Source: a virus. From it: a stretch of 5,674 bases of DNA. A program made the position numbers and the translations under genes. The first letter of the stretch is position 1, and each line of letters begins with the position of its first letter. Under the pieces are notes generated by a model. It was given only the letters and a program-made list of their open reading frames with translations. It did not search any database and had not been told where the DNA came from. This document shows, one piece after another, positions 3,164-5,674 of the stretch. The stretch spans positions 1 to 5,674 of IMG/VR virus record IMGVR_UViG_3300045988_037143. One strand, given 5' to 3'.

Positions 3164-3310
3164 TTACTCCTCGGGCTTGTTTCCCTCTACTGCATGATAA
3201 ATCTTGTCCAGCATAGCCAAGATTTTGCGGATGTTGTTAAACAGCGCGTCGATTTCCTTGATAGACAGAGCGGACACCTTCTTTCTTAAGTTATTTTGTA
3301 TAAATGGCAT
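3164..3310 (-). CDS. Possible 48-aa ORF (MPFIQNNLRKKVSALSIKEIDALFNNIRKILAMLDKIYHAVEGNKPEE)
   Basis: Hand-translated. Its stop TAA lies within the GAGGAGTAA RBS of the 73-aa gene. It has no clear SD, and its ATG sits inside a candidate -10 element. The call is weak. Confidence 0.25.
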   Translation of the reverse strand: MPFIQNNLRKKVSALSIKEIDALFNNIRKILAMLDKIYHAVEGNKPEE

Positions 3311-3336
3311 TGTAAAACAGCACTTTCCGCTGTCTA
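3309..3336 (-). promoter_or_regulatory. Candidate secondary sigma70-like promoter just downstream of the terminator (minus strand TAGACA-16 nt-TACAAT)
   Basis: Minus strand TAGACA (complement of 3331-3336), a 16-nt spacer, then TACAAT (complement of 3309-3314). This is a 5/6 + 5/6 match to consensus. It could re-initiate transcription of the downstream genes after the strong terminator. Confidence 0.3.
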
Positions 3337-3352
3337 ACTATTTATGTTGTAT

Positions 3353-3390
3353 CAAAAAAAACAGGGCTTGTCAAGCCCTGTTTTAAAATT
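3353..3390 (-). terminator. Rho-independent terminator. Perfect palindrome ACAGGGCTTG-T-CAAGCCCTGT flanked by A8 and T-rich tracts. Bidirectional, but strongest for the minus strand (stem followed by T8).
   Basis: Plus strand: CAAAAAAAA-CAGGGCTTGTCAAGCCCTG-TTTTAAAATT. Minus strand: ...AGAGAAAAATAA-TTTTAAAA-CAGGGCTTGACAAGCCCTG-TTTTTTTTGAT. It sits immediately after the stop of the 58-aa ORF. Confidence 0.7.
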
Positions 3391-3565
3391 ATTTTTCTCT
3401 TCTGTTTAGTTCGTCTTTTGCTAGCGCGTGGATGTATTCACAACGGTAGCTTATGTCATTACATGGGCATTTTTCGCAATCTCTGTTGCAGTGCTTGAAT
3501 TTGTAGTCCATCCATCTCAAGGCCTCTGTGTCAAGGTCTTTGTACGTTGCTCTTAAAGTTTTCAT
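3389..3565 (-). CDS. 58-aa Cys-rich small protein (MKTLRATYKDLDTEALRWMDYKFKHCNRDCEKCPCNDISYRCEYIHALAKDELNRREK). Possible zinc-binding small protein.
   Basis: Hand-translated. ATG at 3565-3563, preceded by AGGGGAT with a 7-nt spacer, 20 nt downstream of a consensus promoter. The TAA stop abuts the terminator. The Cys/His cluster H25-C26-x3-C30-x2-C33-x-C35-x6-C42-x3-H46 resembles a zinc ribbon or knuckle. It is absent from the track because it is under 60 aa. Confidence 0.55.
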   Translation of the reverse strand: MKTLRATYKDLDTEALRWMDYKFKHCNRDCEKCPCNDISYRCEYIHALAKDELNRREK

Positions 3566-3591
3566 AGTCTTTATCCCCTTTCTTTAATTGG

Positions 3592-3620
3592 ATTATACCA
3601 CAACTTTGCTTATTTGTCAA
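3592..3620 (-). promoter_or_regulatory. Perfect consensus sigma70 promoter on the minus strand: TTGACA - 17 nt - (TGg)TATAAT with an upstream A/T-rich UP-like tract
   Basis: The reverse complement of 3591-3640 is AACTTTTTTTCAAAAACCTC-TTGACA-AATAAGCAAAGTTGTGG-TATAAT-C. Both hexamers match 6/6 and the spacer is 17 nt. The extended -10 TGn is present. The predicted TSS is near 3585, giving a 20-nt leader with an SD for the 58-aa ORF. Confidence 0.7.
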
Positions 3621-3661
3621 GAGGTTTTTGAAAAAAAGTTTAGATGTGCTATGCCTTGAAG

Positions 3662-3701
3662 GTCATGCGGTAGGCGCGGTGCGCCGTACGGAGAGCATGA
3701 C
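3662..3701. other. GC-rich nested stem-loop in the intergenic region. Outer stem GTCATGC (3662-3668) pairs with GCATGAC (3695-3701). Inner stem GTAGGCGC (3670-3677) pairs with GCGCC-(G bulge)-TAC (3681-3689), loop GGT.
   Basis: Inverted repeats read directly from the sequence. This is the only GC-rich island in an otherwise AT-rich non-coding region. Confidence 0.4.
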
Positions 3702-3743
3702 GAGACCTTCCGGTTTCGCTCGTCGGACGGCCTTTAATTCGAT

Positions 3744-3948
3744 TTTTCCACACTTTCAACATTTTCAACAGGTTTTCCACGAAAAGTTGCACAAATGGTT
3801 TTGTGCATATTGCTACACTTTCAACAATTCAACAAGTTATCCACAAAAGTATCAACATCAAAATAATCCAGAAAATATCGTTCCAAGGATAAAAATTCAT
3901 GGTATTCAACATTTCAACACTCCCTACTATTACGACTACAACAAGTTA
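3744..3948. repeat. Iteron-like array. There are six perfect TTCAACA heptamers in three closely spaced direct-repeat pairs: 3755/3764, 3820/3828 and 3905/3913. Flanking repeats are CACTTTCAACA (twice), TTTTCCAC (twice) and CAACAAGTTA (twice).
   Basis: Counted directly in the AT-rich intergenic region. Pair spacing is 8-9 nt, and the pairs are 65 and 85 nt apart. There is no minus-strand ORF here. The plus-strand 129-aa ORF across it is low-complexity. Confidence 0.5.
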
Positions 3949-3968
3949 ATAATAAATAATAATAATAT
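3949..3968. repeat. (AAT)n / AT-only tract (aataataaataataataata) immediately 5' of the GC hairpin
   Basis: Read directly. A 100% A/T 20-mer. Confidence 0.6.
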
Positions 3969-4008
3969 CATGCGCGTGCGTGCGCGATTACGTGCGCGCG
4001 CGTGCATG
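3969..4008. repeat. 40-nt alternating pyrimidine-purine (CG/TG) element. It forms an 18-bp hairpin (catgcgcgtgcgtgcgcg - atta - cgtgcgcgcgcgtgcatg) with 14 Watson-Crick pairs and 4 G:T pairs. It has potential to form Z-DNA or an ssDNA hairpin.
   Basis: Each arm alternates Py-Pu perfectly for 18 and 18+ nt. Arm pairing was checked position by position. It is embedded in 100% AT flanks. Confidence 0.6.
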
Positions 4009-4027
4009 TCAATATGAAATAAAATAC

Positions 4028-4063
4028 TCAGCCAAGTAACATACTTGATAGTTACTTGGCTGA
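4028..4063 (-). terminator. Perfect 13-bp inverted repeat (TCAGCCAAGTAAC / GTTACTTGGCTGA) with a 10-nt loop. On the minus strand it is followed by TATTTTATTT. Probable terminator downstream of VP4. The plus-strand loop is ATACTTGATA.
   Basis: The reverse complement of 4028-4040 equals 4051-4063 exactly. A second small hairpin TGACAC-caaa-GTGTCA (4065-4080) overlaps the VP4 stop codon. Confidence 0.6.
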
Positions 4064-4077
4064 GTGACACCAAAGTG

Positions 4078-5097
4078 TCAAAATACACCTTTGGCTTTGC
4101 TCATCTTTTTGGACATGGATGCTTCCTTGTCCTTTAGCTGCTCTGCGTATGACTTATCTGTTTCCGCGTTTCTTTCGATTAGGGACGCAATGGCTTTTTC
4201 CTGCCGATACTGTTTGATTCTCCACGCTTTTTCAGGGTTCTCCGCTTCCAGTTTTCGCCAGTAGTATTCCGGTATGGCTGCTCTCTTGCCGTTGGTAAGC
4301 TGTATGTATCCCTGCTGCCAGAGTCTCTCTTGATGGTCTCGGAACCATTGGTCTCCGAGTCCCGGCTTTCGGCTCATTGTGCAAAATGGTGGTATTAAAC
4401 CCATTTTTTGGAAACGCTTTTTGTCGTTGCCGTACAGCTTTTTAGTTACGTACCCTGCAACATAATTATATGTTTGTGGTACTGCTTGTGCGATGTCAAC
4501 TGTACCCTGCCCCCAGATTTTGACTAGCTTATCACTTGTGTAGTGACCGTGTCTTGATAGCTTATGGATTGGCTTTAAGTCGTCTGGGTGCCATCCGTAC
4601 AGTATCATGTGATAGTGTGGTCTCGCTGTGTTGTCTCCATACTCTCCGGCTAAAAAGTATCTCAGAGGCTCTTTGATGGCCTTTCTTAGCCTTTTAATAA
4701 AGAGCTGGGTATCCTCCACGCTCAATGTTTGCGTCGTTCTCGGACGCTCTGAGGTGCCTTTCCAGATATTTATGCCGCCTTTGTAGATTTCGCCTGTTTC
4801 TGTGTCTTGTGTTGGTACATGGTCATCGTCGTACGTTAGCGTGATAAACCAGACACTTTCTTTGTCGTATCCGTATGCTTCTAGCTCCATCCGCGTCGCC
4901 CAGTCTTTGCGTTTGCGCAGTCTGCACCCGGTACATTGTCCACATGGTATCAACATTACATCTTTGCGGTACATTAAATTTTCGTACGTCATTTTGGTCT
5001 TGTGTATCTCGTTAAAAGAGGCGAGTGAGTACACTCGCCCACTCGCCTCTCTGTCGTGAGGTACATAAAACCGAATTAACGGTTTATTGCATCCCAT
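4078..5097 (-). CDS. VP4: Replication initiation protein VP4 (339 aa), an HUH rolling-circle endonuclease
   Basis: The N-terminus MGCNKPLIRFYVP has the M-x-C-x-x-P-L form common in gokushovirus VP4. The CGQCTGC zinc-binding cluster is present. Motif I is FITLTY (residues 84-89). Motif II is HYH (residues 161-163, nt 4609-4617, verified). Motif III is YVAGYVTKK (residues 212-220, nt 4438-4464, verified), near-identical to phiX174 A protein YVAKYVNKK with its two catalytic Tyr. The ATG directly abuts the VP2 stop (TAAATG). Confidence 0.93.
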   Translation of the reverse strand: MGCNKPLIRFYVPHDREASGRVYSLASFNEIHKTKMTYENLMYRKDVMLIPCGQCTGCRLRKRKDWATRMELEAYGYDKESVWFITLTYDDDHVPTQDTETGEIYKGGINIWKGTSERPRTTQTLSVEDTQLFIKRLRKAIKEPLRYFLAGEYGDNTARPHYHMILYGWHPDDLKPIHKLSRHGHYTSDKLVKIWGQGTVDIAQAVPQTYNYVAGYVTKKLYGNDKKRFQKMGLIPPFCTMSRKPGLGDQWFRDHQERLWQQGYIQLTNGKRAAIPEYYWRKLEAENPEKAWRIKQYRQEKAIASLIERNAETDKSYAEQLKDKEASMSKKMSKAKGVF

Positions 5098-5674
5098 TTA
5101 TTTAAGTTTCCCTTTCCAATATTCGATGTTTTTGCTCCCGATGAAGTCTCTTCCCGGTTTGTAGTTGAGCTCATCTTTGGTCGGTTGTCTCCCTGCACCG
5201 CCGACGCCACTGTTTAGGTTGCTGAGGTCGTTGAAGACGTCCTTGAATGCATTAAACGCTTTGTCTGCGCTTGTGTGTGACCAGCTTGTAGCGTCTCCAA
5301 CCGCTTGTGCTGCGTTGTACCAGTTACTTTTGCTTTTGCTCCATGTGTTGTTGTGGTTCTGGCTTACTCCGAGTGCGCTTGCGGTCGCTGCACTGCTGCT
5401 TGCGAGGCCCATACTTGCCCCGCTGATAGTTCCCTGACTGCCGCCCGGTGTGCTTGCTCCGCCCTGTTGGTATGCTAAGATAGGGTTAATGCCTGCTTTT
5501 CGCATATCTTCCACGGCTCGCTGATAAGCTGTATTGCTCATTTGTTCTTGCCAAGCTCTGTTTTTGGCTGCTTCTGCGCTGTTGTAGGACATCGCCGCGT
5601 TGTTGCTTATCTGGTTATATACACCCTGAGTGATTGCCGCCATGGTGTTATAGCCCATTTGTTCGAACATGCTT
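5098..5674 (-). CDS. VP2: VP2 minor capsid / pilot protein, C-terminal part. Continues upstream across the circular junction to the ATG at 346.
   Basis: The 190-aa track ORF (MFEQMGYNTMAAITQGVYNQ...GGASTPGGSQGTISGASMGLASSSAATASALG...) is open to the window edge and in frame with 78..346. It has a Gly/Ser/Ala-rich low-complexity core typical of VP2. Its TAA is adjacent to the VP4 ATG. Confidence 0.85.
   Translation of the reverse strand, partial: SMFEQMGYNTMAAITQGVYNQISNNAAMSYNSAEAAKNRAWQEQMSNTAYQRAVEDMRKAGINPILAYQQGGASTPGGSQGTISGASMGLASSSAATASALGVSQNHNNTWSKSKSNWYNAAQAVGDATSWSHTSADKAFNAFKDVFNDLSNLNSGVGGAGRQPTKDELNYKPGRDFIGSKNIEYWKGKLK
5598..5674. repeat. Second copy of the terminal redundancy (identical to 1-77)
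   Basis: See the 1-77 feature. Confidence 0.9.

Follow-up and report, generated by a model that had tools for sequence, protein, structure and literature searches.

A full-consensus sigma70-type promoter sequence at the head of a putative exchangeable accessory cassette in a gokushovirus genome

Results

Genome organization

The window analysed here, the whole 5,674-nucleotide stretch of IMG/VR record IMGVR_UViG_3300045988_037143, is a complete circular gokushovirus (Microviridae) genome: bases 1–77 recur exactly at 5598–5674, a terminal assembly overlap that leaves a circle of 5597 nt. The GenBank records closest to it derive from uncultivated Gokushovirinae in human, pig, monkey and dog faeces; PV067914 matches best, with 90% identity over 89% of the query. 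In the window-wide ORF list all long ORFs lie on the minus strand, and the promoter must therefore be read on that strand, as are all features below unless otherwise stated. Specifically, the genes comprise VP1, the major capsid protein (392–2032; Pfam Phage_F, E = 6e-145), the VP3 scaffold (about 2029–2505; Chlamy_scaf), VP5 (2483–2725; Phage_ORF5), the VP4 replication initiator (4078–5097; REP_ORF2-G2P) and the VP2 DNA pilot protein, which extends from 5098 over the junction (PHROG pilot protein). Nearly every gene is preceded by a GGAGG-type Shine–Dalgarno site. Additionally, a 38-codon ORF at 2722–2838, with the Shine–Dalgarno sequence GAGGGGG, encodes a hydrophobic, single-pass membrane-like product (MNIMIWVGVIASIIAMCSASFALIAMGTDIIKNWGKNK), which may be a membrane or lysis peptide; a lysis gene is not known from such gokushoviruses.

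A terminator-like hairpin follows VP1 (377–355, −20.3 kcal/mol), and its interrupted U-tract overlaps the likely VP2 ATG at 347 (347–377), so that expression of VP2 and VP4 would need read-through of this terminator. The hairpin after VP4 (4065–4026) begins 13 nt past the VP4 stop and combines a perfect 15-bp stem with a 10-nt loop and a U-rich tail (−26.4 kcal/mol, z = −7.8 by RNA folding), and probably serves as the terminator at which the transcription circle is completed. An Rfam scan of the whole window returned nothing above threshold, and its only hit, a tpke11 match at 3954–4028 lying on an alternating GC stretch, was taken as chance (25 bits, gathering score 43, E = 0.036).

The non-coding region upstream of the promoter

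Past the VP4 stop (4078) extends a non-coding stretch of about 450 nt, which is closed by the promoter under study, P1. Directly upstream of P1 stands a GC-rich double-hairpin element (3732–3661; −30.3 kcal/mol, z = −2.8), whose almost invariant 3′ end, CGCCTAnCGCATGACC, is found about 400–415 nt past the VP4 stop in nearly every close relative and marks the upstream edge of a variable cassette; a complementary-strand origin is one possibility for its function. A different GC-rich element occupies that place in PV067914 and in loci L012 and L027.

The region also contains six copies of TGTTGAA arranged as three close pairs (3755–3770, 3820–3834 and 3905–3919). The window as a whole holds seven copies against 1.04 expected, a number reached in none of 200 shuffles, and the part of the region that bears them matches more than 40 gut gokushovirus GenBank records. 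These iteron-like copies may be binding sites for Rep or a host factor. The motif TAACTTGTTG occurs twice (3934–3943 and 3831–3840) and recurs in 62 of the 93 loci that were fetched, in most cases downstream of VP4; a clade whose VP4 is only 57% identical is among them. The motif resembles the phiX174 origin core, CAACTTG^ATATTAATAAC, and is a candidate Rep nick site or plus-strand origin. Closer to VP4, positions 3971–4010 form a 40-nt GC-rich imperfect palindrome of alternating purines and pyrimidines (catgcgcgtgcgtgcgcgattacgtgcgcgcgcgtgcatg), a type of sequence prone to Z-DNA or cruciform formation; a homologous stretch is visible in L001.

Sequence elements and rarity of P1

P1 unites two hexamers that match the sigma70 consensus at six of six positions, the −35 element TTGACA (3620–3615) and the −10 element TATAAT (3597–3592), across a spacer of exactly 17 nt (AATAAGCAAAGTTGTGG, 3614–3598). 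The 3′ end of the spacer reads TGTGg (3602–3598), an instance of the TRTGn extended −10 or '−16' motif, with its TG at 3600–3599 (−15/−14). The preliminary description had placed perfect hexamers, a 17-nt spacer and a TG extended −10 at 3592–3620, and these elements do lie there, on the minus strand, which it had left unstated. Immediately upstream is an A/T-rich, UP-like element (3644–3621), whose −59 to −38 segment, TCTAAACTTTTTTTCAAAAACC (3644–3623), agrees at 13 of 15 specified positions with the UP consensus nnAAAWWTWTTTTnnAAAAnnn, reportedly that of Estrem et al. 1998; the UP subsite positions are given in PMC2613000. Its distal T-tract spans −52 to −46 and its proximal A-tract −44 to −40.

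On the downstream side, the −10 hexamer is followed by an A/T-rich discriminator (CCAATT) and by a predicted transcription start at the A at 3585 (3586–3584), placed 7 nt past the −10 from the usual −10-to-start distance (PMC12641261); the leader beyond it is AG-rich. P1 lies on the gene strand with a Shine–Dalgarno sequence and an ATG 26 nt past the −10, an orientation and distance that fit a downstream gene.

A consensus scan of both strands reveals P1 as the sole 12/12 site in the genome, TG included. Next in rank come two sites of 10/12, located 246 and 284 nt downstream of P1 on its own strand, and nothing on the plus strand exceeds 9/12, so that equal or better hexamer pairs are not frequent elsewhere in the genome. 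Of 3000 shuffles of the 5597-nt genome that preserved dinucleotide composition, 2 contained a 12/12 site (spacer 16–18 nt, either strand); for 12/12 with a 17-nt spacer and TG, about 1.4e-5 to 2.4e-5 sites per strand are expected analytically. Loose promoter-like matches are not in excess, the window containing 5 against a shuffle mean of 6.2; P1 is thus distinguished by its quality and position, not by the number of promoter-like sites. A repeat search of the window found no inverted repeat over P1 (3592–3644).

The predicted first transcription unit and the promoter-like sites downstream

The first gene after P1 is a 58-codon, cysteine-rich ORF (3565–3389), whose ATG at 3565 stands 8 nt past the Shine–Dalgarno sequence AAAGGGGA (3581–3574). 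Five cysteines and one histidine of its product (C26, C30, C33, C35, C42 and H46) are invariant. The protein has no Pfam or PHROG match, and a search of 5.8 billion proteins returned homologues in only 5 clusters, all unannotated, four of them on contigs of 5.3–5.8 kb and one on a 1.6-kb contig. Its AlphaFold model consists of three helices (pLDDT 74), for which Foldseek found no significant fold match in the PDB, none being better than E = 2.5. A radical-SAM assignment suggested by the CX3CX2C spacing was dropped, 58 residues being far too short.

Five nucleotides past the stop of this ORF begins T1 (3384–3354), a 12-bp hairpin with a 3-nt loop and a U8 tract (−16.2 kcal/mol, z = −4.9), which has the GC-containing hairpin and U-tract by which intrinsic terminators are recognized. 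Embedded in it is a second promoter-like site, P2 (3374–3346), with TTGACA in the T1 loop (3374–3369), a 17-nt spacer and TGaTACAAC (3354–3346) after the T-tract. The same P2-in-T1 arrangement is present in L002, L003, L004, L011 and many IMG/VR loci; a perfect-stem terminator finder proved too strict across the loci, missing many T1 homologues, and the sequences were read directly instead. The TGA within the P2 TTGACA doubles, in several relatives, as the stop codon of the ORF before it. A third site, P3 (3336–3309), has the form TAGACA-16-TACAAT with an inverted repeat, ACAGC..GCTGT, in its spacer, and the homologous block AAACAGCAC..GTGCTTTTT..ACAAA is kept in relatives; the repeat AAACAGCAC..GTGCTTTTT could serve as an operator or as a second small terminator.

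Conservation of P1 among relatives

The relatives compared comprised 12 GenBank loci and 80 IMG/VR loci (of 223 IMG/VR relatives), the latter with VP4 identities of 56–99%. A sigma70-like promoter is located 430–560 nt past the VP4 stop in 57 distinct sequences, the window included. Sixteen of them score 12/12, another 16 score 11/12, 21 score 10/12 and 4 score 9/12, figures that are inflated by the picking of sites on consensus match; 40 of the 57 have a 17-nt spacer and 15 a 16-nt one, and 42 contain the TG. Across these promoters the proximal A-tract is nearly invariant, with A at frequencies of 0.86–0.98, whereas the distal T-tract varies; the UP-like element noted in the preliminary description is thus borne out in the window and retained in relatives through its A-tract.

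As a scan-free control, 34 close relatives were aligned from the anchor CGCCTAnCGCATGACC at the 3′ end of the GC-rich element. Mean pairwise identity in this alignment is 0.85 for the A-tract, 0.76 for the −35 hexamer, 0.81 for TRTG and 0.88 for the −10 hexamer, against 0.51 for the rest of the spacer, 0.38 for the upstream segment with its indels and 0.60 for the discriminator and start region. The TRTGn motif of the window appears in 27 of the 34 aligned homologues, and the Shine–Dalgarno block is likewise kept. A sigma70-like promoter occupies the same place in more distant genomes too, namely those of the 57% VP4 identity clade and L093, a 49% relative. The contrast between 0.76–0.88 in the promoter elements and 0.38–0.60 in neighbouring columns argues for purifying selection on the former, although part of this conservation is inherited through shared ancestry and not selected. 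The parts that RNA polymerase would contact are the conserved parts, which provides the strongest computational evidence that P1 functions as a promoter.

A probable exchangeable accessory slot

P1 (3620–3592), the 58-codon ORF (3565–3389) and T1 (3384–3354) form a promoter–ORF–terminator unit set between the GC-rich element and P2/P3. MT135258 shares only 3389–4003 with the window and is otherwise dissimilar, and PV067914, the closest genome overall, differs from the window exactly in that segment. Among genomes with VP4 at least 85% identical, the first ORF after P1 belongs to at least six mutually unrelated families of 55–65 codons, and several genomes carry two small ORFs before T1/P2 in varying combinations. 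The slot gene is longer, at about 130 codons, in a distant IMG/VR clade (L072–L092, VP4 about 57% identical), where its product looks, by eye and from an SGYR...H...D motif, like an M15-type peptidase.

Loss is recorded in several forms. In L014, L049, L051 and L054 the GC-rich element leads almost directly to the P2 hairpin, leaving P2 as the sole promoter; L011 and L061 keep the UP element and −35 of P1 and have lost its −10 together with the ORF; and L038 joins the UP element and −35 of P1 to the T-tract and −10 of P2, a hybrid that would be the expected product of recombination between two TTGACA-containing segments. Eight related genomes are without P1 and have only a P2-type promoter left, from which it follows that P1 is dispensable for the clade. 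By its layout and its pattern of presence, absence or replacement, P1 with its ORF behaves as an exchangeable, moron-like accessory cassette and not as an indispensable part of the phage.

A broader reading, to which we give slightly less than even odds, holds that gut gokushoviruses set aside the interval from the GC-rich element to T1/P2 as a hypervariable slot for accessory genes, with a full-consensus promoter that is maintained in nature to serve it. Unrelated genes of 55–65 codons, single or paired, would replace one another in this slot or be lost from it through recombination at the conserved flanks formed by promoter and terminator, and L038 would be a scar of such an event. Against it stands the published view that microvirus accessory repertoires are very limited (PMC9239249). 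Were the slot reading true, the small proteins would be host-takeover, exclusion or anti-defence factors.

Discussion

Proposed mechanism and promoter strength

The evidence favours, at roughly two chances in three, the reading that P1 is a genuine primary-sigma (sigma70/sigmaA family) promoter, carried by a gut gokushovirus on its double-stranded replicative form and heading an exchangeable accessory cassette. Sigma region 4 would recognize TTGACA, region 3.0 the TG of TGTGg and region 2 TATAAT, while the alpha C-terminal domains would bind the A-tract; because this is a full set of sigma and alpha contact elements, initiation should be activator-free, and because no operator-like repeat is present, it should be constitutive. 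Transcription would start near 3585 and proceed leftwards on the gene strand, yielding as first product a transcript of about 230 nt with a strong ribosome-binding site and the 58-codon accessory ORF. T1 would then halt part of the polymerases, and read-through together with starts at P2 and P3 would supply the small ORFs, VP5, VP3 and VP1; polymerases passing the presumably leaky terminator at 377–355 would continue into VP2 and VP4 and end at the 4065–4026 hairpin, with the later terminators grading expression as in phiX174.

The preliminary expectation of very strong, factor-independent recognition is upheld in that P1 possesses all sequence elements of an activator-independent housekeeping-sigma promoter, but a perfect match does not safely imply the strongest promoter. 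Within an E. coli library, expression was lower from promoters in which both hexamers were consensus than from those in which only one was, and an UP element lowered the output of some consensus −10 promoters, promoter escape being the proposed limit (bioRxiv 10.1101/207332). Since a consensus promoter with an UP element can be escape-limited in this way, high output from P1 is not assured.

Alternative explanations

The alternative that fares best makes P1 the major promoter of the whole genome, with T1 weak and most structural and replication mRNA originating at P1. P1 scores highest and stands first in the sole promoter cluster, all three gene-strand sites of at least 10/12 falling within 312 nt (3309–3620) at the head of the gene array, and the consensus scan found no site of at least 10/12 ahead of VP1, VP2 or VP4. 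Leaky termination is also known from phiX174, whose terminators block 20–40% of transcription (bioRxiv 10.1101/2020.03.05.979765). However, T1 is a canonical 12-bp hairpin with a U8 tract, P2 and P3 follow it directly and would be redundant if read-through from P1 sufficed, and eight close relatives manage with a P2-type promoter only. We therefore regard this alternative as unlikely, and the earlier suggestion that P1 may be the major early promoter of the whole genome retains its positional basis, the cluster at the array head, while losing ground to the terminator and renewed promoters behind the 58-codon ORF and to the relatives that lack P1. To our knowledge, no temporal programme of early and late expression is known for microviruses.

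A non-transcriptional role is much less probable still. RNA polymerase-primed single-strand origins operate in filamentous phages and in ssoA-type rolling-circle plasmids, and P1 might by analogy be part of a replication origin, or a single-strand origin at which RNA polymerase makes the primer for the complementary strand; its position at the edge of a long conserved non-coding region with iteron-like repeats, a candidate nick-site motif and GC-rich hairpins is compatible with this. Such origins, however, need the −35 and −10 in an intrastrand duplex, and the single-strand origin was rejected because no inverted repeat covers 3592–3644; moreover, some relatives lose P1 together with the accessory ORF and retain the upstream non-coding region, and P1 is followed at standard distance by a Shine–Dalgarno sequence and an ORF. 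Lastly, a functionless compositional match, which A/T-rich non-coding DNA and an unexceptional count of promoter-like matches might suggest, is effectively refuted by elements kept in place across dozens of relatives while spacer and flanks vary; the rarity of 12/12 sites in shuffles (rarer still with TG and the exact 17-nt spacer) and the correct orientation ahead of a Shine–Dalgarno sequence and ORF also speak against it.

The host

P1 does not identify the host. The preliminary description had read from it an E. coli-like sigma70 and a host such as Proteobacteria, a conclusion that finds no support, TTGACA/TATAAT being common to phyla other than Bacteroidota: these hexamers are conserved across the 49 species analysed, Bacteroides thetaiotaomicron excepted (PMC12641261). 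Three weak hints lean towards a Firmicutes-type host: TRTGn, a motif that PMC12641261 calls common in Firmicutes; the AG-richness of the first transcribed bases; and Shine–Dalgarno sites that are uniformly strong and of GGAGG type. CRISPR-based host assignments of gut microviruses agree with this lean (PMC8530359), against which stands the small number of confirmed microviruses of Gram-positive bacteria (PMC9239249).

Searches of 185,579 species genomes, covering prophages and contigs, gave no match to VP1, and a VP4 profile retrieved only one free contig of 5.8 kb with 49% identity, assigned by CONCOCT to a Prevotella MAG. Prevotella was not accepted as host on this basis, since binning of small circular contigs is unreliable and the contig's sigma70-type promoter would misfit Bacteroidota promoters.

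Significance

Gokushoviruses are the dominant ssDNA phages of the mammalian gut, and their transcription signals appear essentially unmapped; a full-text literature search found no paper describing gokushovirus promoters or transcription signals. The present analysis offers a concrete and testable map of predicted promoters and terminators for one gokushovirus clade. P1 itself is an ordinary kind of element from a well-known promoter class, although perfect promoters have been called 'not biologically relevant' (PMC2613000), so that its natural recurrence is mildly noteworthy as a counter-example to the notion that full-consensus promoters are absent from nature. As a compact, probably portable strong promoter it could also be of practical use. 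The exchangeable, variable gene slot under P1 is a more interesting lead than the promoter and indicates where accessory functions of microviruses may be sought.

Comparison with known systems

In element composition P1 is identical to the 'ideal' sigma70 promoter with perfect −35, TGn, perfect −10 and 17-bp spacing (PMC2613000); whereas such promoters are known mainly as engineered constructs, the P1 type is natural and occurs in at least 16 natural genomes. The A/T-rich upstream element is shared with strong phage promoters, for example the T5 N25 early promoter, and with rRNA promoters. With its TGTGgTATAAT sequence the window also resembles Gram-positive sigmaA '−16' TRTGn promoters (Voskuil & Chambliss, cited in PMC2613000; PMC12641261), and it shares with them an AG-rich initial transcribed region and a GGAGG-type Shine–Dalgarno sequence, a likeness that amounts to a hint and not an assignment because TGn, and even TRTG, is also found in E. 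coli promoters.

The layout of the cassette recalls a different group of elements. Morons are autonomous promoter–ORF–terminator units inserted between core genes of tailed phages, and the P1 cassette resembles them in pairing a short ORF with a promoter and a terminator of its own and in being present, absent or swapped among close genomes. Unlike morons, it resides in an ssDNA microvirus and not in a lambdoid prophage, and it heads the operon in the orientation of the core genes; lysogeny is not known for this gokushovirus clade.

The closest parallel as a whole genome is phiX174, likewise a circular microvirus transcribed from one strand through host-sigma promoters without phage factors (bioRxiv 10.1101/2020.03.05.979765). 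phiX174 uses the constitutive promoters pA, pB and pD and the leaky intrinsic terminators TJ, TF, TG and TH (bioRxiv 10.1101/2020.03.05.979765), and both genomes possess intergenic terminators, predicted ones in the window, that would grade mRNA levels. Promoter and terminator overlap in each, as pA with TH in phiX174 and as P2 inside T1 in the window (bioRxiv 10.1101/2020.03.05.979765). The two differ in that the window promoters stand in tandem at one place whereas those of phiX174 are spread around the genome, and in that P1 is fully consensus whereas the phiX174 promoters are described as low-strength (bioRxiv 10.1101/2020.03.05.979765). Finally, unlike phiX174, the window devotes its first transcription unit to a variable accessory ORF.
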